A stretch of 58,285 bases of DNA, the filler included, from Jimgerdemannia flammicorona (taxonomy: Eukaryota): assembly GCA_003990765.1 (NCBI GenBank). It is 3 parts of 3 records of this genome, joined end to end, with 100 filler letters (N's around TTAATTAATTAA, not from the genome) between each part and the next. Parts side by side here need not be neighbours in the genome. Positions count along the whole stretch, not along the records: positions 1 to 19,370 come from RBNJ01001954.1; 2 more parts are not named here. The stretch is one strand, 5' to 3'. The position numbers and the translations under genes were made by a program. The notes under the pieces were generated by a model. The model saw nothing but the letters and a program-made list of their open reading frames with translations, ran no database searches and was not told where the DNA came from. Of the stretch, positions 3,064 through 32,954 are shown one piece after another. The first letter of the stretch is position 1. Each line of letters begins with the position of its first letter.

Positions 3064-6000
3064 TTAGGGTTAGGGTTAGGCTTCAAGAAATAATTTATTT
3101 ATTATAGAGAAGAGAAGGTATATATATTAGAGTAATAAATAGCAAATACTCCTAAGTTGAGAAGAGCAAAAAGAGGTCAGCAAAGTAAACAACTAACTAA
3201 GAAGAATAAAATAAAGATCAGAGAGATAACTACTCTATAGATGAGCTGAATAAATCATTTTCTTATAGCTATAAAGATAATAAAATGCAAAAAGTAAAGA
3301 AAGAGAAGCTAAAATAAAATATACATAAGCTTACTGCTAACTATAGGAATAATATTGATAACCAAATACTAAGTAACTAATATGAGATATATAACTCAAT
3401 ATACTCTCAATAATAAGAAACCAACCAAGATTAATAAGAGAAAGAAAAGAAATACAGAAAATATACAATCACTTAATTACTATGATTTTGAAGAAATAGA
3501 ACTCAACTGCAAGATAGTTATTAGAATTGTACATAGTATCAATAATATGGTAGACTGTCTTATAAAGAGTATGAAGAGAGTAGGTATGAAGTTCCTTCTG
3601 CTATTTATTTATCAATAGTAAACTATTTAAGATTACAACTAGTATTACCTTAGAAGACCGTATACAAACCATCAAGAAGACTACACCTATAGAGATAGCT
3701 ATAATGAAACTCATCTCTATAGAAGTATGGGTGAGGTTGACCAAAATGGCCATAATATCAGATAAGAGTACAATAAACAAACTAGGAGAGAAAGAAGAGG
3801 ATATAATCAACCTCTCTTGACTATAAGTAGTCACAGGACATAATGTACCAAATGAGAGTCTGAGAGAAGGAGGCTTATTTCTATAGTAGCTAATTCTGAA
3901 GAAAGGACTGGAGAAAGGAGTAGAGTGGGCTAGTCTTGTGAATCTGGAGGCAGAGATCTCAGTACTAGTTAAGAAAGTCAAGCTAAGAGATTTAATACTA
4001 GAACTTATCAATAATAGAATCTGGAGAATGTATAATAAAGTGCTCACTAAGGGAGCTGATGGGGTTGTTACCAGACTCACTACACTAATCCAAATAGGCT
4101 TGATATAGCAGAGGTCTGAATTCAACAACAAAAGGAAGAGAGGCTGAGGACTAAACTGCCAAGCAAGGGCTAGCCAGAAAATCCAACCATCTAAGTGACA
4201 GTATCATCAAAGATCTACTCAGAGTATGTACTTCATTATCTAAAGCTCTAAGATAGTGACTGGACAGGAGTTTATAGAAGGGAGAGGCTATATTCTAGCT
4301 GAGGTCTGATAAAGGTATGAATGATAGCCAGCTTAATCATTAGCAACTAGAGGGGACCATGAGTATAGCAAAAACCAAGAGTATATTCTGACTTTACCAT
4401 ATTCTGTAATACCTGATTGATAAAGTCAAATCTGTTATTGATATATAGCATGCCCAGATATATATAAGAGGGGATTGATGAGTACAGTTCTCTCTTGATT
4501 AGTATAGTATAGTTGAGTTCAATGATATTCACTGTAAGCAAATCCTTACAAAATTCAACTATCCTTTGACTCTTAGCAGTAGTGTAAGGAATAAGAGTAA
4601 TATCATTATTAAAGAAAAGGCTAAGAGAGAAGTCATATTTCTTAAATAGTCATCAAAGGAGATAGTAAGGAGGTTAATAAAGATGTCAAAATGCCAAGAA
4701 GAGAGAAGGGAGTCCTGGAAGAGGCCATGCCCAGCAGGGACTAGAGAGATGATAAGGCCATTAATAACTATCTGATAAGAACAGTAATTGAAAAGGCTCC
4801 AGATAATACTAAGATGGCTATATTAGTACCTTGCTCCTCAAGTCAGAAAATAATAAGCTTGAGGGAGACTTAATCATATGTTCACTTGGAGTAAAGAAAG
4901 ACATGGCTACCCCACCTCTTGGTCTATATCTTATGTGAGAGCAAGACATAGAAAAGAAATGAGAAGTAGGTTAGAAGCCACTTTAGCAGTGCAAAATTTC
5001 TATCAGACTACTTCAGGATTTGATATAGTATTTTAAATATTACTCAAAGAGTTGGTGAAACATCTCAGTAAAAGTAATAGGGTGAAAACTATCATTTGTT
5101 AGAGATTTCACTTTATTGAAGATTGCAAAGGTGATAGCAATATTTTAGTAGCAGAGAGATAGCTCTCAAATCAGAAGAGGGAACAATTTGTGGCAGTTGT
5201 AAAATAGGAGGTGGCATAATGGCAGAAAGATGGGCAGTTGATAGCAGAATGGTGGGATAAATTCAAACATTTGGTAGAAACTTACTGGCATGATATTGGA
5301 GAAGTGGCTGGGAAGGAGCAGAAGGACAAAAAAAGGAGAGTAGAGCAAGGGCTGTAATGGTGACTGAAGCTACTAGAAAGGGAGACCTTGTCTGGAGAGG
5401 TGTGCCACTGGTTGGCAGTAGAGGTAGCAGAGTTACAGGCAGATTTGAGAGCATCTGAGAACAGAGTAGTAGATGGCCTACTAGTCAAATTGTGGACCAG
5501 ATGGTTGGAAGAAGGAGAGAGGCCAACTAAGTATCAGTCAGATATTTTGAAGGCCAGGAAGGTATGATACAGCTGGGTCTCAGTATTATGTGAAGATAGA
5601 GTAGAGGTCTCAGAGATTGCTGACATGTTAGGAGAGATATCAGGACAATGGCAGGCTCTCTGATAGGATGGCAGAGAGCATGCTGAGGATACAGTGCTTT
5701 GGGAGAACAATGATAATATGGTGAATAATTGGCCAGTAACAGCATTGTCTAAGATAGGGAAGATAGTCATAGGGGAGGTGTCTTTAGATGAAGTATTGGA
5801 AGTAATGAGGAAGATGTAGACTGATTCATCATCTGGGGAGAATGAGTTGCCCTGGGAATTCTGGAAGGAGTTCCAGACAGAGTTTGGTAGCTGGTTGGTA
5901 GAGATGGCTAACTTCATTCTAAAGAAGAGCAGCTGAATTGACAATAGTTCCTTGGGATTAGATTCCCTTCCATATAAAGAAAAGGGAGATTGATGAGTGT

Positions 6001-8106
6001 GGTATAATTGATGACCTATCATGCTGCTGAATGTAAATAGAAAGCTGGTTTCAAAGATTCTGGCATGGAGGATGCAGCAGTATATTGATGTACTAGTTAG
6101 CGAAGAACAGTGAGGCTTCATCAAGGGGAGGCAGATTAGAGATAGCACTGCTTGGGTATAGAATGTCCTGGAGAGTTATAGGAGCTGACAGGTAGATGGC
6201 TGGATGGTCTTTCTAGATCAAGAGAAGGCCTATGACAGAGTGTGGTGAAGTTATTTGGAGACTGTTCTGAAGAGGGTAGGATTTGGTGTAGCAGAGGTAG
6301 GGTGATTGATGGGTTTAATACAGAGATGCTGAGCAGTAGTTATTATGAATAGATGGAGTGGACCAGAGTTTGCCTTCAGGTATGGTGTGCTACAGAGGGA
6401 CCCTCTCTCCTCCCTCCTTTATGTATGCTCTCTGGAGCCTTTACTGGTATGGCTAAAGGGGTGACTTTCTGGACTGTGGATGGGTAATGTGGTCAGGAAG
6501 CTAGGTGCCTTCATAGATGACATAGTGGTAGGGTTGAGTAGTATGGAGGATGTGGATCTCCTACAGGAAGGGGTTGGACAGTATGAGAGGCTGGCAGGAG
6601 CTAAGCTAAATTGGGGCAAGTGTGAGACAATGGAACTTAGTGCTGGCCTGAGGATATATGGACAATTTGGACAATTGGTGGTGACAGAGAGTGCTGTTCA
6701 GTATCTGGGTATTTGGTTCTTAGTATATGAGACAGTCTTGTTGAAGGAGTAGTAGTGTGGATTGATTCAGAAGTTAGAAGGTGCTTTGACAGATTGGTCA
6801 GAGAGGGGCTTCTCCTTAGTAGATAAGATAGTGGTCTTAAATGTATATTGGTCATCTAAAATGTGGTATCCAGGACACCATTAGGACTTTTTAAAGTGGG
6901 TAGTATAGCAGCTGAAGAAGATTGTGGAGGGGTAGTTGTGGCATGGGAAGTGGCCACAGATTGGATGGGATATACTAGTGATGAGGGCAACTGATGGAGG
7001 CCTGGGGTTGGTGGACTTCAGGTACTGGTTGAAGGTACTTTGAGGTTGGTGGGGGTGCTAACTGGTAGTTCTATTGAGGAAGGTTGGGGCAGACTGGCTA
7101 TGGACAATTGGGAGGTCTGGTTCTACCCCCATGGTGAGATTTGGAAGGATATATGGGGTCTGCTTCAGATTGAAAATATATATAGACTGTGGTATAAGGA
7201 GTTCTGGTGGGGTATTATAGAAGCCTGGCTGGTCATTGAGTTGGCAGGCCCAGAGATAGAGGTGGGTGAGAACCCTGAGCTGAGGTGGTAGTGACTGAGA
7301 GACCTCTGCATTGGTGGCCATAGTTTGAAGGAGTACTCCCTGGTTGAGGTGATAGAGTAGAACAGGTCTGGTCCTCTGGAGAGATGGCCAGCAGGTTGGC
7401 AGAGAGCAGGAATTGGTAAAGGCTGTGAGTGGGACCATATCTAGAGTTGGAGAGCCTCTTTACTCAAGGTGGTGCCCCTTAAGTACTAGGAGGTTTGGTG
7501 GTAGTTTTTACAAAGGAATGTAATTTTGGGTTATTGGACAAGCTGAATGGTGGTAGATGGTTGTTGAGACTGAGTGGTGCAGTGAGGTGGATGGAGGGGT
7601 GGTTCAGATGCCAGAGTATATTCTGGTAGCCTGCCCAGGTGTTGAAGAGCTTTGACAGAGTTTAGAAGGTTACTGGGACCCTGTGAGTCAAAGATCAGGG
7701 GATCCAGTCAGTCTGATGGTCAAGTGCCAGCTGGTGGAGGAGATTTGTGATATCTGAGGTAGTCTAGATTATGTTCTGGAGGTTGGGGTCCTGATGGCAG
7801 TGCATTGACAATGGGTATTTGAGTAGAACCCATAGATGGGAATTAGAGAGCTGATAGAGTGGTAGTGGTGGCTACTCCAAGAGGTGGTACAGGGATGATA
7901 GTATCAGAGGAAGCAGCTTCAACTAGGGGTCTTAAAGAAGGTACAGAATATTGTACTACAGAGTCAAGAGCACCTGGTATCAGATGATCATAGGGTTAGG
8001 TGGAAGAATGGAGTTAACCAAGCTGCCCTCTTTATATATATTATGTTAGTAGTGGTTTATAGTTAATTGTTATTGTAATAAGTAACAAAGTTGGAGTCCA
8101 AGTGAC

Positions 8107-8181
<75 letters not shown>

Positions 8182-8298
8182 GCCCTCAAATTATATAACT
8201 AGAAGAAGAAGAATAAGGCTTTAAATAGGCTACAGGGGACATTATTTTTATCTGCTATTATCAAAAGGGCCCAGACAAGCAGTTGGTGCTATAGAGGA
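3064..8298 (-). mobile_element. APE-RT LINE with telomeric-repeat 3' junction, copy A (5'-truncated, split by an L1-like insertion)
   Basis: Begins TTAGGGTTAGGGTTAGG-CTTCAAG and is colinear with 9811-12060. RT motifs on the minus strand (GLFQDSLLSSWHFDIFI, ~4670-4730). It resumes at 8180 after the inserted LINE. Confidence 0.85.
5172..8179 (+). mobile_element. 5'-truncated L1/Tx1-like LINE (RT and C-terminal region, poly(A) tail, TSD)
   Basis: Degenerate RT motifs FLDQEKAYD (~6210), GVLQRDPLSSLLY (~6385) and GAFIDDIV (6505). Ends GTCCAAGTGACTAT plus ~70 A. Flanked by ATAGCTCTCAAAT (5159-5171) and ATAGCCCTCAAAT (8179-8191). Confidence 0.92.
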
Positions 8299-8816
8299 CT
8301 TCAATGTAAGAATTTATTTATTATAAAGAAGATAAGATATATCAGAGCAACAAATGGCAAAGACTCCTAAGATAAGAAAAGCAAAAAGAGGCCAGCAAAG
8401 TAAACAACTAGCTTAGAAGAACAAAACAAAGGCCAGAGAGGTGATCATCCTAAGGACAGAATAGATAAACTATTTAGTCACAGCTATAAAGATAATAAAT
8501 GTGAAAGCAAAAAAAAGAGAGAAGCTAAGCTATAGTATACAAATGCCCAGCACCAACAATAGGAATAATATTGAAACCCAAATACCAAATAACTGACATG
8601 AGATAAATAATCAATATACTCTCAATAATAAGAGAATCAACTAAGATAAATGAGAGGAAAGAAGAAAATAAAGAAAATATATAATTGCTCAATCACTTAA
8701 GTATCTTTAAAATCTTACTCAGACAGAACCTGAGTGCGAGGTGGCCATCAGAATTATACATGGCATTGATGCAATCAATAGAATGATTGGATGTCTTGTG
8801 AAGAGTATGAAGAGAG
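8299..8816 (-). mobile_element. Telomeric-junction LINE copy B (3' ~0.5 kb only)
   Basis: Colinear with 3081-3580 and 9811-10318. There is no clear TTAGGG tract at its own 3' junction. Confidence 0.85.
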
Positions 8817-9790
8817 TTAGAGTTGGGTTAGGGTTAGGCTTCAAGTAAAAATTTATTCATTGTAGAGAAGATAAGATATATCAGAGTAATAAACAGCAGA
8901 GACTCCTAAGATGAGAGAAGCAAAAAGAGGCCAGTGAAGTAAACAACTAGCTAAGAAGAACAAAATAAAGACCAAAGAGATGAACACTCTGTAGATAAGC
9001 TAAATAAACCATTTTGTTATGGCAATAGAACAAAAATGCAAAAAGCAAAGAGAGGAGAAGCTAAGATATAATATACAAATACCTAGCACCAACTACAGAA
9101 ACAATATTGATACCCAAATACCAAATGACTAATATGAGATATATACATAACTCAATATACTATCAATAACAAGAAAACCAACTAAGGTAAATGAGGGGAA
9201 AGAAGAGAGTAAAAAAAATATACAATCACTTAATTACCCAAGTATATTCATAATCTCAGTCAGACAGAACCCAATCACAAGATGGCTACCAGAATTATAC
9301 ATAGTATCATAGCATGATAGGCAGTCTTGTAAAGAGCATGAAGAGGGTAGATTCAAAGTTCCTCCTATTATTCATCACTGATAAATCAATTGAGCTGTTC
9401 ATCATGATCAGAATTATCTCAGAAGGCAGAATTCAAACCATCAAGAAGACCACACCTGAGGAGATGGCCACAATGAAACATATCTCTACAGGGGTAGGGG
9501 TAGAGTTGGCCAAAGTTGCCATAATGCAAGGCAAGAGTTGAGCACATAAGCCAGAGGGGGAAGAAGAGGATGCAATTGGCTCTCTGAGACTATAAATACT
9601 CTTTGAGTGTATTGTATCAAATGAGAACCTGGGAGGAGAAAGCCTATCCTGAAGCAGCTGGTCTCAAAGAATTGACTGGAGGAAGGAGTAGAGTAAGTGA
9701 GTCTTGCAGATCTGGGGATGGAGGTCCCAGTATCAGTTGAGGAAGTTAAGCCAAGAGGTCCAACTCCTGAACTTATTAATGATAGAACCT
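8815..9790 (-). mobile_element. Telomeric-junction LINE copy C (3' ~1 kb)
   Basis: Starts with GTTAGAGTTGGGTTAGGGTTAGG-CTTCAAG and is colinear with 9811-10803. Confidence 0.88.
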
Positions 9791-12700
9791 GGGTAAGAGT
9801 TAGGGTTAGGCTTCAAGTAAGGATTTATAAATTATAGAGAAGACAAGATACATAAGAGGAATAAATAGCAAAGACTTCTAAGATGAGAAAAGCAAATGAG
9901 GCCAGTGAAATAAACAACTAGCTAAGAAGAACAAAACAGAGGTCAGAGAGGAGACTACCCTATGGATGGGCAGGATATAACTATTTTGTCACAGCCATAA
10001 AGATAATAAATGTGGAAAGCAAAGAAGAGAGAAGCTAAGATAAAATACACAAATGCCCAGTGCCTACTATAGGAGCAAATCAACACCCAAATACCAAATG
10101 ACTGATATGAGAAGAATAGCTCAATGAGCTCTCAACAATAAGAGAACCAACTGAGATGAATGAGGAGAAAGAAGGAGATAAAGAAAATGTGTGATTGCTT
10201 AATCACCCAAGTATCTTTGTAATCTCAGTCAGGCAGAATCTGACCATGAGGTGGTCACCAGAATTACACAAAGTATCAATAGCATAGTAGGCTGTCTTGT
10301 GAAGAGCATGAAGAGAGTAGGCATGAAGTTCTTCCTGCCATTCATTACTAGTAAACCAATTGAGCTGTTCATCATGATCAGAATTATCTTAGAAGGCAGA
10401 ATAGGAGCTATTAAGAAGACTGCACCTAAGGAGATGACCATGATTAAACTTATCTCTACAGGAACAGGGGTGGAGTTGGCCATAATTAAACTTATCTCTA
10501 CAAGAACAGGGGCAGAGTTGGCCAAAATAGCAATATTGCTAGGTGAGAGCAGAGTGCACAAGCTGGGGGGGAAAAGAAAGGACACAATCAGAACCCCAAG
10601 ACCACAACCAGCCTTCGGGAGTAATGTACTAAACCAGAGCCTGAGAAGAGGAGGTCTATTCCTGGAGCAGCTGATTCTAAATAAATGACTGGAGGAAGAA
10701 GCAGAGCAAGTGAGTCTTGCAGACCTGGGGATGGAGGTCTCAGTTCCAGTCAAGGAAGTCAAGCCAAGAGGTCAATTGCCAGAACTTGTCAATGATAGAA
10801 CCTGGGGGATGTATGACAAAATGCTTGCTAAGGAGGCAGATAGAGTTGTTGCCAGAATTACTACATTAGTTCAGATGGGCTTGGAACATGCAACAGAGGT
10901 CCAACAAATGACAAAGAAAGGAGAGGAGGCCAAGAATCGAACTGCCAAGCAAGGGACAGCCAGAAAATCTGACTGCCCAAGAGACAGCATCATCAAAGAC
11001 CTGCTCAGAATATTTCAACACCAGAAGCTCTATGGTAGTAGTTGGGCAAGAGGCTCATAGGAAGAGAAGGCCATATTCTAGCTGAGGCCTAATGAAAGTA
11101 CATACAATGGCCAGCTTGACCTTTAGCAACCAGAGGGGATCCTGGGCATAGCAGAATCCATGAGTACATTCCACCTTAGCTACATTCTGAAATGCCAGGC
11201 TGACAAAGTCAAATCCTTTGTTGGTATATAGTATGCATGCTCAGGTAAATGTAGGAGGGGGTTTGTAGGCAGGGTTCTCCCCCAATCTGTACAGTACAGT
11301 CAGCAGGGCTAACATAACTACACTTCTTGGAATTGAGCTCCATACCATTCTCCAAGTGCTATGCTTCACAAAAGTCAATCACCCTTTGCCCTTCCACAGC
11401 AGTGCGGGGGGTAAGAGCAATATCATCCACAAAGAAGAGCTCAAGAGGGAAGTTGTACTCCTTAAACTGCTCATCAAAGGAGGTGACTATGGGGTCAATG
11501 AATATATCAAAGAGCCAGGGGGAGAGAAGAGAGCCTTGAAAAAGGCTATGCTCAGTAGGGACTGAGGGAGTGACAAGATCATTGAAAACCACCTAATAAG
11601 AACAGTGGTTGAACAGACTTCAGATAATTCTAAGGAAGGCCACATCAGTACCTTGTTCCTTAAGTCAGGAGGGAATGAGTTTGAGGGAGACTCTATTATA
11701 TATCTGCCAGAGGTCAAGAAAGATACAGTGGCCCCACTCCTTTGCCCACATCTCATGTAAAAGTAAGACATGGTAGAGGGATGAGAAGTGGGTTTGGAAG
11801 CCACCTTGGCAGTATAACATTTCTGTCAGGCTACTTTAGCTCTTGATATAACCTTTCAAGCATCACTCAAAGAGTCTGCGAAACATCTCAGTAAGAGTGA
11901 TCAGGCAAAATCCATCAATTGTCCTTGACTCCTCCTCCTTGGAGACTGGGGTAATGATGGCAGAGTTCCAGTAGTGAGAAGTGAGCCCCCAAACCATGCA
12001 CATCTGAAAGAAAAAGGAGAGGGCTTTTGACAGACTACAGAGGGCATCCTTCTCACCTACTATCACCCAAAGGATCCAGACATGCAAGGAGTCAGCCCTA
12101 TAGGCCTTTATGAGGGGGTAGCTATAGATAGCCCTCCAAACTGCAGGCTGGTCAAATTAGGACTGCAGTCCAGAGCACCCACATCAAAGAGAAAGATATT
12201 CACAGAGTCATCAAGGTGGAGAGAGGTATCTGGTTAGCTGAAGATAGTGATAAAATGAGCAACTATATTATCAAAGACCAAGACAGCAGTTGAATGAGAC
12301 TGGAGGGGAGTGGGAGGGGTTGAGCAACATACTTACTTAAAACCACAAATAGTATTAGAGACCAAAGATGAACTGTGAAGGTCCTACTGAGAGAGTGATG
12401 CTGTCCTGATTTCTCTTGTGTCATACAAGCCCAATATGTCCTTACAGATAGACTATAGACCAGAGGTCTGGAGAGAGTCAAGAGAATTCACAAACTGCTG
12501 GTAATCTTCCACAGACTGAAAGCCAGTAATGTGGTCTTGAGCAGAGTAGATGGACCTAATAATAGTATTACAAATGATATCTATAGATTTCCCAAGGTGA
12601 GCTTGGATGACTGAATCAGTCAGATACTTCACAGAATAGAAGTGGATACCAGCCAAGGCAGTAACTAGTAAGGGGGAGAAGGGAAAGGAGATAGTGAGAA

Positions 12701-14879
12701 GGGAGGGGTGATCAGTAGCAACAGGAGAAGTAGTGCAGGTGAGAGACATATGGAGAGATGCAGTGGTGAACGTATGGTCAATATACATATATAGATCCAG
12801 CTACCAGGGTCAGATGGTTCAATGACTACATCATCAAGGAGATATTGACAACATCCATCCAATCTCTAGGACCAGAGTTGACATCACTAAGTTGGGTACC
12901 AAAGCAGATATTGATGTCACCAATCAAAGGGCCTTGCCTGGGAAGGGGCCAGACATAAGATTATGGAAATCACTAATAGTAAGAGAGGGGGGGGCATAAA
13001 CTATGACTAAGCTAAGCTCTGAAACATGAGCAGAATATGGAAGGGGTCAGTAGAGGACCTGGAAATAAGAGAGGTGAAATGGTTTGACATAAGGACTATG
13101 AGACCACAATTCTGGTGACCTATAATCCTGTGTGATGCCAGGGGAGAAGATATGTGAACAAGCAGAGAGGGATACAGTAGGATATACTATATTTCACATA
13201 TGAAAAGAATATTGAGAGCAGGATCAATCAGCCAACTGAGTACATTGAACTTGTTCTGAGTTAGTCTATGTATTGAGGAACCCAACTCTTAGGCAACAGC
13301 CTATAGAAAAAAAAAAAAAAAAAAAAAAAAAGAGGAACCCAACTCTCATTGTAGGCTGGGTGCATTAGCATCAATAGCATGGGAAGTATCTGAAGAGAAA
13401 GCCTCAGCTTCCAGATTCATCGCCATCTCCCCAGTCATGACTACAGTACCACCTGCCTTCAAAGCAGGGCTGACCAACAGAGGAGTGAGAGAGTGGAGAG
13501 TGAGGCCAAGTTCTACAGCCCATACCTTGTAGAACATCTGCAACTCTGGCCTCTTTGCAGTAGCATTGCCAACCAACTGCTAGACCAAAGTATAGGAGAA
13601 TTGGAGTACTCATGCTTTCATGGCCTCTGTGGTGTTCTTGTTGTGTGGGAGGGCAGAGTTCTAGGCCAAAAGTACCAAAAACCCAAGCACCTTCATCTTC
13701 TTTTGGAATGCCATGACATAATTAGGGTAGAGGAGGAATTTAATGATTAATACCAAAGCATACAATATTTTGAGACCTTTTGACAACATCATATGGATGT
13801 TATACAGTTCTTCCAGATCTGCCTGATCTTCAAATAGGTGAATCCATTAAAATAAATATGCTACAGCCTGGCATCTCTTTTAGTGAGCAACAAATGAGAG
13901 TTCAGCTGGTTGGTCATACATGAGAGGACAGTGGTAGTGGTAGCCCTTTCAGTCTTGGGGTAGGCCTGAGTCCTATTCTTGATAGTGACCTTCTTGGTAG
14001 TGGCCCAGGGGCCTTGCCCTTACCCTTTTTAAAGGGTATGGCTTTGGCAGCCAGAGGTGCTGCCATGAGAGTTGCCTTCTTCAGACTGTGATATAGCAGC
14101 TTTAGTGGCCTGCTTGTCTACTCACTTCTGGGCCTTCAACCACATGTTTGTGACAGGACCAGTAGGAGGGGGGGCTGAGGACTTAGGGGGGGTAGTTGTG
14201 GAAGGAGCAGTGGGGGTACTTTCTGAAGGAGTACCAGATAACATGAGGGCAGTGGGCACTATAAGCACAGCAAGCTATGCCATCAGCTGAGTATTGATCT
14301 TGGCCATTTCAACCACTTGAGTTAGCAGATCTGAGATCTGCTTTCTCATTATGGCCATCTCTATGACCAGATCAGGGTTAGCTGAGGGGCCTGCATGACT
14401 AGCTATCAGGGTCATATCCAAACTAGTATTCAGGCGACCACACTTATTCCAATTGAGGAATGAGGGTGTGGGAGAGAAGGGTGGACACTGGGCATCATGA
14501 CCTGAATTAGAAGAGATTGTGATCTCTTCATTATCTTTCACATCATGCAGGGAAGACAAATATGCCAATATCAGTTATATATCCCTATATAACCTATATA
14601 TTGCTATAAGGCTACTCTTATCGAAACTGAGAGAGAGAAGACTGATGCAGTATAGTAGAGAGAGGCACCAAAGTACACAAAGAGATAGTGGTATTACCAT
14701 CATTACTAATGAAGGAGGAGGTGGCCAATATTGCTAGAATAGGTAAAGATGTGTTTATTTATATTTAGGAAATTGTGAAATGCAGGTCACATGACCTTTG
14801 TTGTGCAATGAAAAAATGATGAGGAAGTGGGTATTTATACCCAATAGAAGGCTTAGCAAAATCAAAGTGACTGCTTTCA
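9791..14879 (-). mobile_element. Telomeric-junction LINE copy D, near full length (~5.1 kb; ORF1 plus APE endonuclease-RT-zinc-finger ORF2, decayed)
   Basis: Minus-strand motifs: LVIVYAPP (~12990-13010), LIGDINI (~12910-12930) and YIDH...TDH (12700-12790) indicate APE. ITLTEMFRRLFE, LFQGSLLSPWLFDIFID, FFVDDIAL and FIRPQLEYG indicate RT. CPCSCRDKFNHGH is a C-terminal zinc finger. ORF1 remnants lie at ~13350-14570. The 3' junction reads GGGTAAGAGTTAGGGTTAGG. Confidence 0.9.
13275..13346 (+). mobile_element. Minimal retrotransposed insertion (17 nt plus A25) with perfect 15-bp TSD
   Basis: GAGGAACCCAACTCT (13275-13289), then TAGGCAACAGCCTATAG(A)25, then GAGGAACCCAACTCT (13332-13346). Confidence 0.9.
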
Positions 14880-16023
14880 TTAGGGTTAGGGTTAGGTACA
14901 AGTAAGAATTTATTTATTGTAGAGAAGATAAGATACATCAGAGCAATAAACAACAAAGACTGTTAAAATGAGAAAAACAAAAAGAGGCTAGTGAAATAAA
15001 CAACTAGCTAAGAAGAATAAGATAAAGTCCAAAAAGATGACTATCTTATAGATGGACTGGATAAACTATTTTGTCATAGCTATAAGGATAATAAATGCAA
15101 AAAGCAAAGAAGAGAGAAGCTAAGATAAAATACACAAATACTCAGTACTAACTATATGAACAAATCAATACTCAAATACCAAACAACTGATATGAGATAT
15201 ATAACTCAATATGCTCTCAATAACAAGAGAACCAACCAAGACAAATGGGAAAGGAGAGGAATAAAGAAAATGTATAATCACTCAAACACCCTAGTATCTT
15301 TATAATCTTGGTCAGACTGAACCCATCTACAAGGTGGCTATCAGAATTACACATGACATCAATAGTATGATAGATTGTCTTATGAAGAGCATGAAGAGTG
15401 TAGGCATGAAGTTCTTCCCGCTATTTGTTACCAGTAAATCAATTGAGTTATTCATCTCAATCAGAATTATCTCAGAAGACAGAATAGGAACCATTAACAA
15501 CTGTACCTGAGGAGATGACTATGATGAAACTTACTTATCGCTATAGAGGCAGAGGTGGAGTCGGCCAAAGTAGCCATTATACTAGGCAAGAGCAGAGCAT
15601 ACAAGCTGGCAGGAGAAGAAGAGGATGTGATTGGTACCCCAAGACCATAAATAGCCTTTGGGAGTGATATACCAAATGAGCACCTAAGACAAGAATGCCC
15701 ATTTATAGAGTAGCTAGTCCTGAAGGAATGACTGAAGAAAGGAGCAGAGCAATTGAGTCTTGCAGATCTGAGGATGGAGGTCTCAGTACTAGTTGAGGAA
15801 GTCAAGCCAAGAGGTCTAATGCTGGAACTTATCAATGATAGAACCCAGTGGATACATGACAAAGCACTCACTAAGGGCACTGATGTGGTTATTGCCAGAC
15901 TTGCTACACTAATCTAGATGGGCTTGGAATATGTAGCAGAGGTCTAACATATGACAAAGAAAGGGAGGGAGGCTAAGAATCGAACTGCTAAGCAAGGGTT
16001 GGCCAGAAAATCTGATCACTCAA
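14880..16023 (-). mobile_element. Telomeric-junction LINE copy E (3' ~1.1 kb, interrupted by a gypsy LTR)
   Basis: Starts TTAGGGTTAGGGTTAGG-TACAAG. It is colinear with 9811-10980 until the LTR begins at 16024. Confidence 0.88.
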
Positions 16024-19000
16024 TGTAAGAGGATTGCTTTTTAGGGTAACCGTTATGTAGTTCTGGAAGGGTTTTCTGGAAGTTCTGGATATTCTAGAAG
16101 ACCATTTTCTTATGGTTAAGATCAATTTCATATGGAGTACATCCTCTATACTTATTGATTTCAAGATCACATTGATGTCTCAACCAAAGTCCTTTTTCAG
16201 ACTAGTTCTGGATATTCAGGATTTTCCGTATTTCAGGAAGTTCAAGAGACTAAGACTAGCTTAGTTGAATTGGCATATTGCTGCAGACAATACCCAATTA
16301 GGAAATTTCATGATGGGATTAGGAGTGGGACCTAATGGGGTAGATTTACTTAAGAGTGGTTTGTGGGTTATTAAATAGGTTTATTTACTATTCATGATAT
16401 TGCTATACTAGGAGTAATTGTATAGGAGATATTGTGGGGAAGTGTTTAGGAATAGTCTTGTGTGTTTGAGTCTGAGATTCTGAGGTCTGGGGGAATACTA
16501 GTGAGGGGCTATCTGGACTATGCTAAATATAGATGTAGCACTAAGTACCTTGCTGAGTTGGAATGCAGTCACATAGTACAAGTGTGATCTGATATGTCAA
16601 GAGATTGTCTGACTGCTGAGTCAGTTCACAGTCACGTGGTTCAAGGCTAATCTAACTATACTATGACTGCTAGGCTATTTATAGGTTTAGGCACTGTCTA
16701 GGTAGTCCTCGATGATATCACCATCAATTGCATCATCTCTGATGAAGTAGTCATCTAGAAAGAGTGGTTTGTGGATTACTTCTCCTTGTTTGCTGAGATA
16801 ATAATATATTAGAACTTCATCACCATCCCACAGAATAGCATAGTCTGTCTCATATGCTGGATAAGGTGTTGGTTCGTGAAGGAGGGGTATATCATCTTCA
16901 CTTTCATCAGATTCACTGTCTGCATACCTTCTGTAGGTTACAGCACTATGAGTTGCAGGGTTGTAGTAAGCTGGTGGCTGTGGTTCATGTTGCTCATACT
17001 TGGGTGGTGGAGTGATTGGTTCAACCTCGAGGGTTGTCTGGAGGTACAGGTCATGTTCTCCAGTCTCTTCATTATAGTTGAAGTAATCGGGAGTGAACGC
17101 AGGTTGGTATTCATGCCAGTGGTCATTGTCCCAATAAGTCTCATGTGCCATTATGAATTGTTGTAAGTTCATTAGCAAGGTTGGCAGTGTGATCAGGGTT
17201 GGCAGAAATCCTTGGCTAGAGGTCATGTCGGCATCAGAGGGATCATTATCTTCTGCTTCATCTTCATCGAAGTAGATTATATCATAGATGTCCTTTATGG
17301 TATATCCAACTTGGAGCATTTGCAGGATATGATCATTGGGGTGTGGAAAGGTTCTGTCTGTGGTGTCAATATACTCAAGATACTTGTTGTATCATGTCAT
17401 CAATTTGGCCATAGAACAGGGTAGCAACCATTTCAGCTGTGGTAACTCGGAGGTGGGTAATAATGGTGCTATACTCATAGAAGAGTTCTTGATGTTTGCG
17501 GGCAATGAGCTTCTGATGTTGAGACATCTTGGTAATGTCTGTATCATGGTGGTATTCGATCATGTCTTCCAGGAGGTGGCTGATCTGGTAGTAGCTTGAG
17601 ATTTGTCTGATTCGGTTGGCCTCGCTAAGCATGTTCAGAGCATTCCATCGGGCTTCCACAAAGTAGAGGGGTGCTAGTCTATGGATATTTATGAGGGGCA
17701 GAGGGGGTGTGGCTTGGTTGACAATGGCATTCCAAATGTCAGTACAGATACAGGTATAGATCTTGGTGGTCATGTTTGTATGTTTGGAAGTTGTGGTTGT
17801 TATTTGTTTTGGTTCTCTGATTTGACACATCTTGGTGCTCAGTATATATGCATTTGATCCTGATTGGTAAGATTCCGTTTGTGTAAATCTTGTGTTCTGT
17901 GACTTCATATTGACTCAGCTTTGTATGCCATGACTTTGGTTTGACTCAGCTTTGTGATCAAGCAGGTGATTTCCAGATTTGTTCAGAGGTCACATGTGAT
18001 TTCAGTGGCTTGGAGGTTGTGTACTTACAACCCTCCCCTTCTTAGCTTTCGACATCCTCATCAGGGCCTTCTAATTTTATTCAGTGGTACAGGGAGAATA
18101 GGCTTGCTTTCAGTTTTGCCATTTTTCCAGAGGGTCAGTATTCTTGTTTTGTTTTGCTGAGTTCTTGGTTTGGTTTGCAATAATTATAATATTCAGGAGG
18201 ATAATATACAGTATGTACAGATAGGTGTGGAGTATTTGGTTCTAGTTGTTCAAGAAATTATATTCCTGAACTAGGTCAGTAGTATTCTGGAGATTGGTCT
18301 TGGGTTCCCAGGTTACATCGTGGATCAGGTAACCTTTCTATTTGACAAGATACTCAGGGTGGCTCTTGTTGCCATGTTTGTTGAGGATTTGTTCAACTTT
18401 GTACTCTTCTTGATCATTAATAATGACAGGTGCAGGTGGTTTGGTGGTCCAGTGTGGAAATAGCTTGTCATCATTCTCATTGTATCACTTGAGACATTGA
18501 ACATTAAAGACTGGGTGAATCTTAATGGTATCCAGTAGCACCAATTTGTAGGAGGTTAGAGAGACTTGTGCAATGACTTCAAATGGTCCAATGAACTTGC
18601 TGTTCAGCTTTGTAGATAGTCTGTGCTTGAGATTGTCAACTCGGTATCCTCTGATGTCCAGTAGAACTTTTTCTCCAATATTAAAGATTTCTTCTTGGCG
18701 GTGTTGGTTAATATACTGTAACTGTTGTTCTTGAGCTCATGATAAATTCTCGATGGCAATCTGACTTAGGTTGCACATTCGAAGTAGGAATTCTTCAACA
18801 GCTTCAACTATGGAGGGTTCTTCAGTGGTTCGGATAAGTGTCAAAGAGGTGTTTGGGTTTTGTCCAGTGTTAGTGAAGAATGGGGTCATTCTGAGAGAGG
18901 CTTGCTTGCTATTGTTATAGGCAAACTCAACTGTGGTAAGGTGTTCATGCCAGTCATCTTGTCTGTAGGAAACATAGTTCCTTAGCATATGTTCCAGAGT

Positions 19001-19370
19001 TTAGTTCATTCTTTCAGTTTGGTTATCAGTTTCCAGGTGAAAGGCTGTGGATAGTGCAAGTTTTGTTCCAAGGTGTGTATGGAGGGCTTTCCAAAAATGG
19101 CTGGTGAATTTCGCATCTTGGTCACTAATAATGATCTTGGGAAGACCATGATAGCAGAAGATGTTGTCAAACAAGAGTATGGCTATGTCTGGTGCTGTTG
19201 CAGTAGTGGTAGTAGGCACAAAGTGGGCTTGTTTGCTGAGATAGTTCACAAAGAAAACAATTGCATCTTTCCCATTCTTGGTTCAGGGTAGTTGTACAAT
19301 GAAGTCCATAGAGATTTGTTCCCAATTTGTAGATGGTACTGGGACAGGGTGAAGTAAGCTGGGTTTTGCT
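16024..19370 (-). mobile_element. Ty3/gypsy chromovirus 3' part: integrase, chromodomain, PPT and ~2-kb 3' LTR (16024-18029)
   Basis: Integrase motifs SDQDAKFTSHFW, STAFHLETDNQTERMN and VEFAYNNS. Chromodomain EYKVEQIL...YLVK.KGY...TWEP at ~18290-18410. The PPT complement ACCCTCCCCTT is at 18030-18040. The LTR is bounded by TGTAAG...CTTACA. Confidence 0.92.
16687..17908 (-). pseudogene. LTR-internal ORF of unknown function (177-aa and 210-aa pieces of one ancestral ~410-aa ORF)
   Basis: Two long ORFs. The paralogous LTR (30811-30822) has 11 extra nt at the junction, which restores a single frame. Confidence 0.75.
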
Positions 19371-19470
19371 NNNNNNNNNNNNNNNNNNNNNNNNNNNNNN
19401 NNNNNNNNNNNNNNTTAATTAATTAANNNNNNNNNNNNNNNNNNNNNNNNNNNNNNNNNNNNNNNNNNNN
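19371..19470. other. Artificial contig spacer
   Basis: 44 N, TTAATTAATTAA (stops in all frames), 44 N. Confidence 0.98.
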
Positions 19471-19797
19471 TTTTTTTTGCAGTCAAATTCAGCTGTATTA
19501 TAGAGTAAGGAATATATCATCCTATACAATATGATAATAAAAGATGAGTAAGATGAGAAGGGGTTGAAAGCCAAGTATGACTTCTTGAAAAATTACCAAC
19601 CAGTCTAGTAGGAGCAATTACAGAATATAAAAGTCTTTCCCAATCACTACTACCAAATTTGAGATAAATAAGATCTTAATAGTCTTATTCCACTGTTTCT
19701 CTATAAAGTTTAAAATTAATTTTATATTTATACTAAAGAACTAAATAGTTGGAAATATCTTTGAGTTATTATATTATCCTAGAGCTGATGAAAGGGG

Positions 19798-20620
19798 GTG
19801 TTGGAGCGACGACTTTGTTACGCCGTCATTTCTTTGCCGTGGAGCGAAACACACAGCGATCTTTACGACGTCCTCAAACCTTTCTGCATCAACCACCTTT
19901 CCATCGGTGTCCTCAATGATCTCTCCGAGGCCCTCGAGTTTCTGCTGACACGACCCAACCCCACGGATTTCGAAACCTCCGAGTACGGCCTGTTGCTAGC
20001 TGTAGTTGAATGGGCCTGGGCGCAGGAGAAAACGTCCCTCATGTATCCGAACGTGCGCTGCCTTTGATGCGATCACGAACTTGAACGTTACACACGGCAT
20101 CAACATTGTCCTGGGGAGATAGTCTAGCGCGCGAGTCGTTGCTAAAGATGATCCAGTACGTGGATCTCACCACATCGTCTGAGGAGCTTTACCGAGGCCA
20201 TTGATATCTATGAAATCAATCCGCCATATATGGTATTCTGACATCATGCTTGTAAGAATACCTGTCCGTCGGGACACCTTCGGGGTTTCGTAGAAAACGG
20301 CACGTTTCCGATTTCAAGTTGGGTTGCTTTCTAATCGGTACGGGTCTCGTCATCTCCGAAGGTGGCAAGGTCGTTCAACTACCTGTAAACGCAACTGAAT
20401 TCAACCTGTCGAACGCATCCGACCCCTGCGCGACTATGGGACATCGTCGTTGAATCGGTCGGCATTTTAGATCCGAACACTCCTTTTACTATCGTTGGCC
20501 TGGTCGGGGGAGAGCGGACATTTTGACGAATAATCGTGGTGGGCTTTCGGCTCTCTCGAAGTAGCTTACGGAATCAGGATCCAAAGTGGCGATGTTATAA
20601 CCTTTTACCTCAACCTGAGT
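19798..20620 (+). pseudogene. BTB/BACK-type protein fragment, frameshifted and 5'-truncated
   Basis: ALEFLL...FETSEYGLLLAVVEWA resembles the BACK-domain E..L..AV..W motif. The CpG-rich coding-like sequence continues with stops and frameshifts and abuts AT-rich DNA on the left. Confidence 0.5.
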
Positions 20621-20966
20621 GATCATACTTGTGCCCTCTCAATTAATGACCCAGATTATGGAACTGCTTGGACATATAGTATACCCTTTGGGATGTTGTT
20701 TCGTGGTGCCCAATATCGCATTCAAGCTCGTTCGTAAAAAAACGGACTCGGGCGAACTTTGTAGCGAGGGTAAATGTACGCTAAGGATTTATTTTTTTAT
20801 TTTGGTTTACATTTTTACTGACACTACAACCTATGATTATTCCAATGATCTCCCGGCTAACTTTGAACTTATATTTAGATGTATCCATAGTAAGCGATAT
20901 TGATCCAGCTTATTAAATAACCATAAATACGATCCGCTCTTTTGGAGAATGCAGAGACATCACGCC

Positions 20967-20973
20967 TATAAAT
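20967..20973 (+). promoter_or_regulatory. Candidate TATA box of the PAP gene
   Basis: TATAAAT about 150 nt upstream of ATG 21119. Confidence 0.4.
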
Positions 20974-21118
20974 AGCCGAGCCGATAGGGCACGGCGGTGG
21001 GTGGATCTGTGTCCTTAATGGTCTGCGGACCGTCTACATAGGGATATGGAAGTGTGGCGCAGTTCGTTGTCATTGACGACCAAAGTCATTCTCTTCCATT
21101 CCACGAAAAGAAAACTAC

Positions 21119-24141
<3,023 letters not shown>

Positions 24142-28648: not shown

Positions 28649-29425
28649 TGCCACCGTGACAACATTTACGTCACTAAATTGTGGCGCTGTTAATAATTCT
28701 TGTCACTGAGGTACGCCGATTTGGCTGTAAAAAAAAAAAATTGAAGTTCATGTGAGTACCTTGAGGTACGGGGTCCATCATGACTAACTGGACCCAGATC
28801 AAGGCCTTTTTTGAGAATAAGCAAGGCCCTAATCCCTTTAACAACCATATTTTCTGTGGCTTATATATATGCAAATTTACATAACTGAGTTTTTTATATA
28901 ATGTTATTTTCTTTTACTTTATCTGCCTTATCTGCTTCTAATACTCCTATACCCACATCAGCTGCTGCTATTGTCAGATGGCACAACTATACCCTTGCTG
29001 TTACCTCCTTATCCAGTCAAGCCATTGCTCACTTATCTTCATTATCTGAAGCTATTGCTGGTCTGTTTTTATTGTTTCAAGCTATTGTCAGCTCTTTCTC
29101 GTCTTTATCTACCCAAGTTGTTGCTACCCTATTCTTGTCCACCCAAGTTGCTGCCAGCTCATCATCAGCTTTTTTTGTGGACAAGTACAATATTCCTATT
29201 AATATCCTCCTTAGTCATCTATATATAAGTATTTTGAAAAGTTTTCTTAAACAAATAAATAGCAAATTACCTAAAGGAGTAAAGCTATGTGAAAATATAA
29301 AAAAAGATGAGTTATAGGAGCAGTTGTATAAGTTTCTTGAGCTTAGGGATGGTGGTTTAGTGATAAATGTTCAAGATCCTATCACTGTTTATAAGAATCT
29401 TGAATTTTCAAGAATCAATCATAGA

Positions 29426-32400
29426 TATAAGAGGGTCGCTTTTTAGGGTAACTGTTATGTAGTTCTAGAAGGGTTTTCTGGAGGTTCTGGATATTCTGGA
29501 AGACCATTTTCTTAAGGTCAAGATCAATTTCATATGGAGTACATCCTCTATACTTATTGATTTCAAGATTGAGTTAATGTCTTAACCAAAGTCCTTTTTT
29601 GGACTAGTTCTGGATATTTAGGATTTTCTGTATTTCAGGAAGTTCAAGAAACTAAGACTAGCTTAGTTGAATTGGTGTATTACTGCAGACAATACCCAAT
29701 TAGGAAATTTTGTGATAGGGTTAGGAGTGAGATCTAACAGGGAGCAGATTTATTTAAGAGTGGTTTGTAGGTTATTAAATAGATTTATTTGCTATTTATA
29801 ATATTGCTATACTAAGAGTAGTTGTGTGAAGGGATATTGTGGAGAAGTGTTCAGGAGTTGTGTTCAAATTGTTTAAATATTTAAGTCTGAGATTCTGAGG
29901 TCTGGAGGAGGGGGTATTTATACTAGTGAGGGACTATCTAGACTATGCTAGATATAGATATAGCACTTAGTATCTTACTGAGTCAGAATATAGTCATGTA
30001 GTACAAGTGTGATCTGATATGTCAAGAGATCATCTGACTGCTGAGTCAGTTCACAGTTATATCATATAAGGCTAATCTAACTATACTATGACTGCTAAGC
30101 TATTTATAGGTTTAGGTGCTATCTGAGTAGTCTTCAATGATATCACTATTGATGGTATCATCTCTGATGAAGTAGTTATCTAGGAAGAGTGGTTTATAGA
30201 TTACTTCTCCTTGTTCACTGAGGTAATAATATATTGGGACTTTGTCACTATCCCACAGGATAGCATTATCTGTTTTGTATGCTGGGTAAGATATTGGTAG
30301 GCAAAGGAGGGATATATCATCTTTGCTTTCATTGGATTCACTGTCTGTATATCTTCTATAAGTTACAGTACTATAAGTCACAGGATTGTAGTAAGCTAGT
30401 AGCTATAGTTCATGTTGCTCATACTTGGGTGGTGGGGTAGTTGGTTCAATCTCAAGAGTTGTCTAGAGGTATAGATTGTGTTCTCCAGTCTCTTCATTAT
30501 AGTTGAAGTAGTTAGGAGTAAACATGAGTTAATATTCATGCTAGTGGTCATTGTCTCAATAAGTCTTATAGATAGTTATAAACTATTGTAAGTTTATCAG
30601 CAAGGTTGGTGGGGTAATCAGGGTTGGTAGGGATTCTTGGCTGGAGGTCATATTGGTGTTGGAGAGATCATTATCTTCTGCTTTGTCTTCATCAAACTAG
30701 ATTATATCATAGATATCCCTCATAGTATATCTAACTTGAGGCATTTATAGGATATAGTCATTGGAGTGTGAGAAGAATCTGTCTGTAGTCTGAACATACT
30801 TGAGATACTTATGATTGAGTTCTTGTATTATATCATCAATTTGACTATAAGACAAAGTAGTAACTATTTCAGTAATAGTAACTCAAAGGTGAGAAATAAA
30901 GGTGCTATACTTATAGAAGAGTTCTCAATATTTATAGGTAATAAGTTTCTGGTGTTGGGATATCTGGGTAATATCTGTATCATAATGGTATTTGACCATG
31001 TCTTCTAAAAGATGGCCAATCTGATAGTAGCTTGAGATTTGTCTGATTCAGTGGGCCTTGCTAAGTATGTTCAGGGTATTCCATCAGGCTTCCACAAAGT
31101 AGAGGGGTGCTAAGCTATAGATATTCATGAGGGGCAGAGGGGGTGTGGCTCAGTTGACAATGGTATTCCAAATGTCAATATAGATGCGGTTATAGATCTC
31201 AGTGGTCATATTTGTATATATTCAGAAGTTGTGGTTATTGTTTGTTTTGGTTCTTTGTTTTGATGTATCTTAGTGCTCAGTATATATATATTTGGTCCTA
31301 ATTAGTAAGATTCTGTTTGTGTAAATCTTGTGTTCTGTAACTTCATATTGACTCAGCTTTGTATACTGTGACTTCAGTTTGACTCAGCTTTATAATCTTG
31401 CAGATGATTTCCAGATTTATTTGGAGGTCACATGTGATTTTAGTAGCTTATTCAGAGGGTGACATGTGATTTCAGTGGCTTGGGGGTTGTGCACTTACAA
31501 CTCTCCCCTTCTTAGCTTTTGATGTTCTCATCAGAGTCTTCTAATTTGTTCTAGTATTGTTATACTATTTGGAAGATCAAAAGTCCAATAAAGTCCATTT
31601 TTTCAGAAAGTGGCATGCTCATAGTACAGTTGTCTAATATATTGGATTCATATATTAAAGGGTTGTGTGTTTAATGCTATGTACCAGAAGTGATTCTGAT
31701 ATCATTCACTGCTGGAGAATTTCCTCTAAGAAATTTTCTTAAATATCTATACCCTGTTTCCCACCAGTGGTATGGGGGGAATAGGCTGGCTTTCAGTTTT
31801 GCTATTTTTTTAGAGGGTCAGTATTCTTTTTATCTTGACTTGCTGAGTTCTTGATTCAGTTCATGATAATTAATATGTTTGGAAGAGTAATATATAGTAT
31901 GAACTAATAGGTGTAGTAGTGTTTGAGTTTCAGTTGTTCAAGGAATCATATTCCTGAACTAAGTCAGTAGTATTCTGGAGGTTGATTTTGAGTTTCCAGG
32001 TTACATTGTGAATTGGATAACCTTTCTATTTGACAAGATACTCAGGATAGTTCTTGTTACCACATTTGTTGAGAATTTGTTCAACTTCATATTCTTCTTG
32101 ATCATTAATAATGACAGGTACAGGTGGTTCTGTAGTTTAGTTTGGAAATAGCTTGTCATTGTTTTCATTATATTGCTTAAGACATTGGACATTAAAGACT
32201 GGGTAGACCTTAATGGTGTCTGATAGCACCAATTTGTAGGAAGTAGGAGAGACTTGTGCAATGACTTTGAATGGTCCAATAAACTTACTATTCAGTTTGG
32301 TAGATAGTCTGTGCTTGAGGTTGTCAACTCAGTATCCTCAGATGTCCAATAGAACTTTTTCTCTAATATCAAAAGTCTCTTCTCAGCAGTATTAATTGAC

Positions 32401-32954
32401 ATACTGTAACTGTTGTTCTTGAGCTCATGATAAGTTCTCAATCACAATCTGGCTTAGATTATGTATTCAGAGCAGGAATTCTTTGATGGCTTCAATAGTA
32501 GAGAGTTCATCAGTAGTTTGGATAAGTGTCAGAGAGATGTTTGGGTTTTATTCAGTATTGATGAAGAATGGAGTCATTCCAAGAGAGACTTGCTTACTAT
32601 TGTTGTAAGCAAACTTAACTGTGGCAAGGTGTTCATGCCAATCATCTTGTCTATAGAAAACATAGTTCCTTAGCATTTGTTCTAGTATTTGGTTCATTCT
32701 TTCAGTTTGGCCATCAGTTTCAGGGTGAAAGACTATGGATAGTATAAGTTTTGTTTCAAGGTGTGCATGGAGGGCTTTCCAAAAATGGCTGGTAAATTTT
32801 GGATCTCAGTTACTAACAATGATTTTAGAAAGACCATAATAGTGGAAGATATTGTTAAACAAGAGTGTGGCTATGTCTGGTGCTGTTACAGTAGTAGTAG
32901 TTAGTATGAAGTGGGCTTATTTACTGAGGTAATTTATAAAGACAACAATTGTAT
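29426..32954 (-). mobile_element. Second copy of the chromovirus 3' part (LTR 29426-31499, PPT, chromodomain, integrase), more mutated
   Basis: Colinear with 16024-19265 and has the same LTR boundaries (TATAAG...CTTACA followed by ACTCTCCCCTT). It is interrupted in the integrase by the LINE at ~32955. Confidence 0.92.

Follow-up and report, generated by a model that had tools for sequence, protein, structure and literature searches.

How do copies of a single long interspersed nuclear element (LINE) come to stand head to tail, joined to one another by short tracts of telomere repeats? This question is raised by a stretch of 58,285 nucleotides from Jimgerdemannia flammicorona (GenBank assembly GCA_003990765.1), which was analysed as a whole and is called the window in the following. 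On its minus strand, five 5'-truncated and CpG-decayed copies of one LINE family, designated A to E, form an array at 3064-16027. An earlier note on this DNA, made from the sequence alone, had described five copies in the same orientation, and BLASTN with copy D as query bears this out: A was recovered at 3082-5099, B at 8300-8817, C at 8840-9793, D at 9812-14897 and E at 14899-16015, with an identity of the other copies to D of 69-79%. The element bodies start exactly at 3081, 8299, 8839, 9811 and 14897, which are the 3' ends that the note had given. In the remaining 42 kb of the window, BLASTN with copy D found no further copy, and a 23-nt probe for the LINE 3' end revealed no additional fragments in the window. 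The array and its immediate insertions comprise the following features:

3064-3080, minus strand: tail of copy A, 17 nt, reading TTAGGGTTAGGGTTAGG on the plus strand; adjoins non-LINE, AT-rich DNA at 3063
3081-5171, minus strand: 3' part of copy A, equivalent to 9811 to about 12000 of D, with reverse transcriptase (RT) remnants
5172-8178, plus strand: poly(A) LINE 'X', a later insertion of an unrelated family; RT at 6006-6722, poly(A) at about 8106-8178
8192-8298, minus strand: 5' continuation of copy A, equivalent to about 12000-12103 of D; meets B without a tract
8299-8817, minus strand: copy B, comprising the 3'-terminal 519 bp, without telomere-type tail
8818-8838, minus strand: tail of copy C, 21 nt of degenerate TTAGGG units
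8839-9793, minus strand: copy C, reduced to about 0.95 kb at the 3' end
9794-9810, minus strand: tail of copy D, 17 nt, degenerate
9811-14879, minus strand: copy D, longer than all others and possibly complete
14880-14896, minus strand: tail of copy E, 17 nt
14897-16027, minus strand: copy E, reduced to about 1.1 kb at the 3' end; 5' end cut by the chromovirus end
16028-19268, minus strand: 3' part of chromovirus 'Y' (Ty3/Gypsy), outside the LINE array, with integrase SH3 domain, chromodomain and long terminal repeat (LTR) end

Telomere-type tails at the junctions of the array

Read in element orientation, the order is E-tail-D-tail-C-tail-B-A-tail-flank, and there is no foreign DNA between the copies. 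The 5' truncation points, expressed as equivalents in D, are 10318, 10806, about 10985 and 12103, and LTRs are absent. LINE X is flanked by a 13-bp target duplication, ATAGCYCTCAAAT, at 5159-5171 and 8179-8191, and the 107 nt at 8192-8298 beyond it align co-linearly with D (score 115.5, whereas shuffles reached 57.5 at most). Because copy A resumes there, its truncated 5' end abuts the 3' end of B, and since LINE X merely splits copy A, all five copies adjoin directly. The earlier statement that truncated copies do not resume must consequently be given up for A. At the other side of the array, the 5' end of copy E (16027) adjoins the exact terminal CA of the chromovirus fragment, and the original upstream boundary of the array, together with any target duplication, is thus lost. 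Copy E is not resumed beyond the chromovirus, as no LINE homology was detected in 19269-21300 (word size 7, E up to 1). A comparison for a target duplication around the whole array yielded just a meaningless 6-mer in common. The note's remark that target duplications are missing is uninformative, as the upstream edge was destroyed by the chromovirus.

The tracts themselves are confined to the LINE ends. Allowing at most one mismatch, TTAGGGTTAGGG gave 6 matches at 4 places in the window, all of them LINE 3' ends and none elsewhere, while the chance expectation is 0.50 matches and 6 were reached in 0 of 100 shuffles. On the plus strand, the tracts of A, C, D and E all finish with ..TTAGG immediately before CTTCAAG or TACAAG, i.e., in one phase. 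A same-phase tract had been claimed for four of the five junctions, and such a tract, 17-21 nt long, is indeed found in 4/5 window copies, copy B having none. In element orientation a copy ends ..AATAAA-(~18-23 nt)-CTTGAAG-CCTAACCCTAACCCTAA, and no poly(A) follows any of the four tails in the window. Two further points of the note hold: the element RNA would end in C-strand telomere repeats, and the G-strand runs toward the 5' ends of the elements. Copies B-E bear tracts of 17-21 nt on one or both flanks, while the 3' flank of A is non-telomeric past 17 nt. Tract length is alike between copies and beside non-LINE DNA (at A), and none exceeds the element's own tail. Since every tract has about the length of that tail, no telomerase-made tract is visible. 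Possible microhomologies are GGG at the C/D-tail junction and TAGG at the A/B junction.

A clade of LINEs with telomere-type tails

To which kind of element do these copies belong? Copy D is full of stops (76-90 per frame), while Pfam RVT_1 is still recognised in it (E 3e-12). A word-based protein search with the RT of D matched just four proteins, at 34-36% identity, and a profile of relatives was built from these (P0001-P0004). It aligns co-linearly with D over profile positions 27-128, 144-200 and 196-390 (the apurinic/apyrimidinic endonuclease (APE) region plus linker), 420-732 (RT) and 822-998. The RT part of the match lies at D 11233-12168 (independent E-value (i-E) 4.6e-59) and the APE region at D 12228-13267, where the domain is disrupted by stops and frameshifts. 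Thus the APE motifs that the note had read in copy D are corroborated by the co-linear match of the intact relatives' profile, which also matches copy A at 4272-5144. Remnants of open reading frame (ORF) 2, with APE, RT and C-terminal region, span 10458-13267 of D; upstream follow weak ORF1 remnants at 13610-14316 (i-E 2.8e-4 and 1e-3) and a putative 5' untranslated region (UTR) that extends to 14879. No Pfam family and no solved relative were found for ORF1.

The profile aligns with residues 6-777 of human L1 ORF2p (8uw3_A, E 3.7e-31), and the best solved relatives are L1 ORF2p and R2. Within the N-terminal 260 residues, the catalytic N, E, Y, D-N, D-H and D-H positions are invariant in 10/10 intact relatives. 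A model of these 260 residues (predicted local distance difference test 70.9, predicted template modelling score 0.75) has the L1 endonuclease as its top fold match (E 1.2e-6); the TRAS1 endonuclease ranked 12th, and APE1 and the R1Bm endonuclease were matched as well. A sequence search of solved structures with P0006 retrieved no endonuclease-only chain, whereas the fold search did find such chains. Pfam searches of P0001-P0004 gave no other nuclease, and their C-terminus bears a Cys-Cys-His-Cys motif only. Profile, invariant catalytic residues and fold taken together, the element is an APE-type LINE with ORF1/ORF2 layout, as had been proposed. We rejected a Penelope-like identity because an APE domain is present, and an element with restriction-like endonuclease (RLE) because an APE lies N-terminally instead. 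Within the putative 5' UTR of D, at 14786-14845, CACATG (perhaps a decayed CACGTG) is enclosed by an inverted repeat AGGTCA..TGACCT. Both this repeat and a TATAAATA motif fall into the first 100 nt of the UTR and are possible promoter elements.

A metagenome scan with the four-protein alignment delivered 80 loci. An RT tree of 43 tips was calculated from 38 RT domains in which 200 or more profile positions are covered, together with three proteins and two other RTs from the window. In this tree, D groups with 14 others with a support of 0.99 and on a long stem. L003 and L010 stand outside the tree, their RT coverage being too low, and L024 is likewise not part of it. The C-strand telomere repeat is found at the end of 9/10 clade elements whose 3' end is on the contig (L001, L004, L005, L006, L007, L008, L009, copy 1 of L011, and D), poly(A) never. 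In copy 2 of L011, no tail occurs in the 448 nt that remain before the contig ends; a duplication is present in the 3' UTR of this copy. This count leaves out L002 and L015, of which the 3' end is missing, and P0001, P0003 and P0004, of which the protein only is available. L003, L010 and L024 carry the tail as well. Tails in the clade are 15-28 nt long, corresponding to about 2.5-4.5 C-strand units. Tracts of at least two units were in C-strand sense orientation in 11/11 cases among the 80 loci, and no locus outside the clade bears such a tract.

An AATAAA- or TATAAA-like signal lies 16-23 nt before the tail point in 5/5 window copies, the tail-less B included, and the same spacing was seen in 7/11 relative loci examined. 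No AATAAA-like signal was found in L011, L024 and L003, and that of L009 is 37 nt away from the measured point. By its placement, the signal would direct cleavage at or just past the tail; yet poly(A) is not copied, since no run of A follows any tail, neither in the window copies nor in the relatives. The tail is element-encoded and is copied with the element from a fixed point after the body.

The hosts of the clade range from 29% to 66% GC, the tail unit staying CCCTAA or CCCTAAA. L011 and L024 represent one GC-rich family (64-66% GC) with tails CCCTAAACCCTAAA.. (CCCTAAA), which is nested in the CCCTAA-tailed clade (support for the placement of L011 0.87-0.95). L015 is preceded by a CCCCTAA tract. 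CCCTAAA is the plant and green-algal unit and is documented for Chlorella and other green algae (10.1101/2024.02.27.582245, PMC8226300). The tail unit may be matched to the telomere unit of the respective host. A tail of telomere C-strand repeats is a clade-wide trait, and with a unit that changes to CCCTAAA in one lineage the link to telomeres is stronger than the note could tell.

Relatives of the element are scarce in sequence collections. A profile search of a protein collection gave 18 proteins with at least 423 bits, followed by a next score of 170, all of them from unannotated assemblies; 5/18 have a precomputed PF03372 or PF14529 assignment. In a genome contig collection, a pattern scan for the body-tail junction gave 0 matches and the search for relatives one distant RT fragment only; a viral contig collection contained none. 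The rarity of the clade, with 18 proteins from unannotated assemblies, may explain why it escaped description. The note's suspicion of an undescribed family agrees with the full-text literature searched, outside which most subscription journals and Repbase Reports lie: no APE-type LINE clade ending in telomere repeats was found there.

Beyond the tails of the relatives, the following sequences were found:

L006: ORF2 from a different family within the clade, 5'-truncated, 41% aa identity
L007: ORF1 of another family of the clade, 45% aa identity
L011: second copy, 74-79% nt identity
L010: own unit, the contig ends being identical over 127 nt
L005: exon-like stretch whose match to CoA ligase (E 0.0018) stays below the curated cut-off
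L008: open frame of 239 codons on the opposite strand, without family
L001: nothing LINE-like; GCTAACCCTAA twice more within 80 nt of the tail
L003, L009, L024 and L004: flanks too short to judge

Head-to-tail stacking hence recurs in L006, L007, L011 and L015, also between different families of the clade, while the same tail adjoins ordinary DNA in L005 and L008. L010 was not counted as an independent array, as its graph is cyclic (1-127 equals 1427-1553 at 100%); its 1426-bp unit, which consists of a 5'-truncated LINE with its tail, is joined to its own start and represents either tandem identical units or circular DNA. At 4179-4317 of L005, an intact telomere-tailed LINE stands directly against the CoA-ligase exon-like stretch, with the tail readable in frame; the stretch presumably belongs to a succinyl-CoA ligase alpha gene. 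The open frame flanking L008 has no Pfam family and atlas scores <0.9. For L001, we considered whether the flank is a D-like LINE 5' UTR and rejected this (local alignment score 41 against a shuffle mean of 45.9). L007 has a second CCCTAACCCTAACCCTA tract at 4510-4526, inside the downstream ORF1, where it is read NPNPNP, about 100 nt before the ORF2 start.

These observations bear on one possible explanation, namely an ordinary LINE whose short-repeat tail resembles the telomere unit by chance and whose array resulted from chance nesting or local rearrangement. Many LINE clades do have short simple repeats at the 3' end instead of poly(A). Moreover, the array lies within a CpG-decayed repeat block in which insertions accumulate, and two relatives abut non-telomeric DNA. 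However, chance nesting sits badly with five copies in one orientation, end to end and without target DNA between them, and with the same arrangement in L006, L007, L011 and L015 from different hosts. Nor would chance keep natural telomere units (CCCTAA, CCCTAAA) across hosts of 29% to 66% GC. We thus regard this explanation as very improbable.

How the array may have grown

The best reading, which we favour tentatively and rate somewhat short of probable, is nick-primed insertion at TTAGGG tracts, the tails of earlier copies included. Nicking is implied by the endonuclease, which is intact in the relatives. Reverse transcription would start on the tail while it is paired with a DNA 3' end in a G-strand repeat (..TTAGG-3'), and the element's own endonuclease would supply this primer by nicking a TTAGGG tract. 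Eligible tracts would be the three-unit tail beside an earlier copy, or its target duplication. For SART1Bm, three TTAGG units are stated to suffice as target (PMC7265360). As a result, copies of the same or of related families would pile up head to tail with a repeat of about 17 nt between them, while true telomeres and single TTAGGG-like sites of the genome would be hit likewise. Zepp elements of the L1 type are described to build tandem 3'-end arrays in a comparable manner, by targeting existing copies (PMC8226300). The present array is situated within a CpG-decayed repeat block, and a poly(A) LINE and a chromovirus invaded the array at a later time.

Several observations speak against nick-primed insertion. 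The tails of L005 and L008 abut DNA without visible telomere motif, and the B/A junction lacks any tract. Finally, there is a conflict of ages: insertion into a resident tail would put the new copy 3', so that E should be the oldest, and private transversions disagree with this. Over about 925 sites, A has 27 of them, D 16, C 13 and E 11 (chi-square 9.1, 3 df, p ~0.03); over about 490 sites, the numbers are 14 for A, 10 for B, 8 for D and 4 each for C and E (chi-square p ~0.06). They suggest that the 3'-most copies are older, but the signal is weak, because A sits in the most AT-rich and most decayed stretch. The two agree only where target duplications keep a tract available at either side of each insert, or where A accumulated mutations more quickly because of its AT-rich environment. 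The ages weakly favour growth at the 5' side, as would result from terminal priming, from a concatemer or from nicking with duplicated targets.

Pairwise, the copies differ by 14-22% transitions and 3-7% transversions. Shared-derived transversions are nearly absent (2/487 and 1/925 sites), from which it follows that copies A-E are old and derive from one source sequence. Accordingly, there is no subfamily structure among A-E, and the order of insertion is unreadable from shared changes.

The earlier note had proposed a fossil subtelomeric array built by repeated priming on chromosome ends. Here, the RNA tail would pair with the G-rich overhang of a natural or broken chromosome end, copies would be added 5'-ward without endonuclease, and the array would be a fossil end that is now internal. 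The direction of the G-strand toward the element 5' ends is the right polarity for this, A looks oldest and E is among the youngest by private transversions, and the tail-less B/A junction could reflect priming on the bare 5' end of A via the possible TAGG microhomology. There are also printed parallels: for Zymoseptoria tritici, a retroelement confined to subtelomeres is described that forms tandem truncated copies and whose 3' end bears 1-3 TTAGGG units and points away from the telomere (PMC4522978), and endonuclease-deficient Penelope-like elements are described as limited to chromosome termini (10.1101/2021.04.23.441226). Against terminal priming stands, first, the endonuclease, which is conserved in 10/10 intact relatives. 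Second, the tracts are never longer than the element's own tail, which would demand four successive additions without telomerase synthesis between them, and the tract of A beside non-LINE DNA measures only 17 nt, without a remnant of a longer telomere. Third, the direction in which the end is expected is now occupied by 42 kb with housekeeping-type genes and a CpG observed/expected ratio (o/e) of about 1, so that a later fusion or translocation would be needed. Fourth, L005 and L008 lie beside ordinary DNA. We therefore consider terminal priming rather unlikely and the claim of a fossil chromosome end unproven: it finds no support in tracts of own-tail length, in the flanks of L005 and L008 or in the internal position of the array.

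Alternatively, the array could be a one-shot concatemer, made by a single target-primed insertion at 3063/3064 during which the RT jumped repeatedly to the 3' end of the next LINE RNA and recopied the full tail each time. This would account for inter-copy tracts that each equal a complete tail (17-21 nt), for the single source sequence and for the possible GGG and TAGG microhomologies mentioned above. The contig of L010 fits as well, since it closes on itself over 127 identical nt with a unit joined to its own tail. Template jumping by a non-LTR RT has reportedly been studied with R2. It is a known property of such RTs (PMC8857657). The unequal branch lengths, however, with A about twice as long as C and E (p ~0.03-0.06), would not be predicted for copies of equal age, and the adjoining copies in L006 and L007 stem from different families (41-45% aa identity). 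To our knowledge, five consecutive jumps would also lie far above the documented number. A concatemer is hence improbable in our view, and we return to nick-primed insertion as the preferred reading.

A more far-reaching proposal can be built on the same data, which we consider possible, yet doubtful. The clade would then be a widespread, so far overlooked group of endonuclease-bearing LINEs whose host-matched C-strand tail primes on G-strand ends, chromosome ends included. It would be the LINE counterpart of Athena/Coprina, able to extend or heal ends in telomerase-positive fungi and algae, and the array would go back to a former chromosome end, or to a break that was healed, which came to lie internally afterwards.

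Known telomere-linked retroelements and surroundings of the array

The observation is real and significant, and the element represents an apparently undescribed variant among telomere-linked retroelements. Comparable to it are TRAS1/SART1 (Bombyx mori, R1 clade) and Tx1-1_ACar (green anole, Tx1 clade), which are likewise APE LINEs tied to telomere repeats in fixed orientation and in telomerase-bearing hosts. They are named telomere-specific (PMC10088271). In contrast to the clade described here, with its own telomere tail of 15-28 nt, no poly(A) and copies also beside ordinary DNA, they have a poly(A) tail and a position inside long telomeric arrays (PMC7265360 and general background).

By its 3' end, the element rather resembles Penelope-like elements. 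For Athena/Coprina, Gladyshev and Arkhipova reportedly described in 2007 telomere repeats at the 3' end and tandem 5'-truncated copies. Short 3' telomere repeats and 5'-truncated tandem copies are shared by Athena/Coprina, by 'family 4' of Zymoseptoria tritici (PMC4522978) and by the element studied here. However, Athena/Coprina lack an endonuclease, have a Penelope-type RT and a demonstrated terminal location, whereas we found a conserved APE and the ORF1/ORF2 layout of a LINE. The subtelomere-only retroelement of Z. tritici is the nearest printed case; it was likened to Penelope-like elements by its authors, and the description does not say whether it has an endonuclease (PMC4522978).

With regard to array structure, three further systems are comparable. 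Zepp is poly(A)-tailed and its clusters mark centromeres, both in difference to the element described here. Still, Zepp/ZeppL of green algae (L1 clade) are APE LINEs with tandem 3'-end arrays (PMC8226300), as observed here in the window and in L006, L007 and L011, and Zepp was first found beside a Chlorella telomere (PMC10088271). MoTeR, FoTeR and Cnl1 are similar as fungal non-LTR elements stacked at telomere repeats, but they belong to the CRE/SLACS group and have a restriction-like endonuclease in place of the N-terminal APE; the note's assignment of MoTeR and Cnl1 to the RLE type is thereby confirmed (PMC12857005). HeT-A/TART/TAHRE of Drosophila are, as here, head-to-tail 5'-truncated LINEs that are connected via the 3' tails, the 5' ends pointing outward. 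Yet they represent the jockey clade, end in oligo(A), live in a telomerase-less host and have a demonstrated terminal position (PMC5537684 and general background).

Known telomere-linked retroelements thus fall into three groups: poly(A) LINEs that cut telomere repeats (TRAS/SART, Tx1), restriction-type LINEs (MoTeR, FoTeR, Cnl1), and endonuclease-less Penelope-like elements with 3' telomere repeats. The clade described here joins features of the first and the third group, being endonuclease-bearing and ending in the telomere C-strand unit. Consequently, it offers a testable system for RNA 3'-end pairing as primer choice in target-primed reverse transcription, for the use of chromosome ends by retroelements while telomerase is present, and for the origin of short interstitial telomere tracts and head-to-tail LINE arrays.

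The surroundings of the array are mixed. In 2-kb bins, CpG o/e is 0.00-0.10 in repeat blocks (1-16, 30-38 and 50-56 kb) and 1.0-1.14 in genic blocks (20-28 and 40-48 kb); there is repeat-specific CpG hypermutation in the window. A strong GC skew tracks individual elements. Decayed repeats of 3 kb lie on one side of the array, and a poly(A) polymerase gene is located 5 kb off on the other, with canonical exons at 21312-24100 on the plus strand (PAP_NTPase, E 4.1e-26; PAP_RNA-bind). For one of these exons, the closest clusters of a protein atlas are predominantly from Basidiomycota, which serves as a mere lead. In the chromovirus fragment at 16028-19268, the domains SH3_Tf2-1 (E 1.9e-13) and Chromo (E 2.4e-10) were recognised. 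Another chromovirus fragment, 82-83% identical to it, lies at 29425-32954. LINE X has a poly(A) of about 73 nt, and its RT groups with a plus-strand LINE at 36525-37418, outside the telomere-tailed clade. Copy D itself contains a micro-insertion at 13290-13331, composed of 17 nt plus A24 and bordered by a perfect 15-bp duplication, GAGGAACCCAACTCT, at 13275-13289 and 13332-13346; in all probability, this is a poly(A) retrocopy with extreme 5' truncation. Beside repeat ends, N runs occur at 19371-19470 (19371-19414 and 19427-19470) and at 38830-38929 (38830-38873 and 38886-38929), each of them two times 44 N split by 12 bases. Finally, two adjacent open frames at 41466-42391 on the minus strand match 'Predicted AAA-ATPase' (E 2.3e-6 and 2.9e-7); they could belong to a single gene that is interrupted by an intron or a frameshift.

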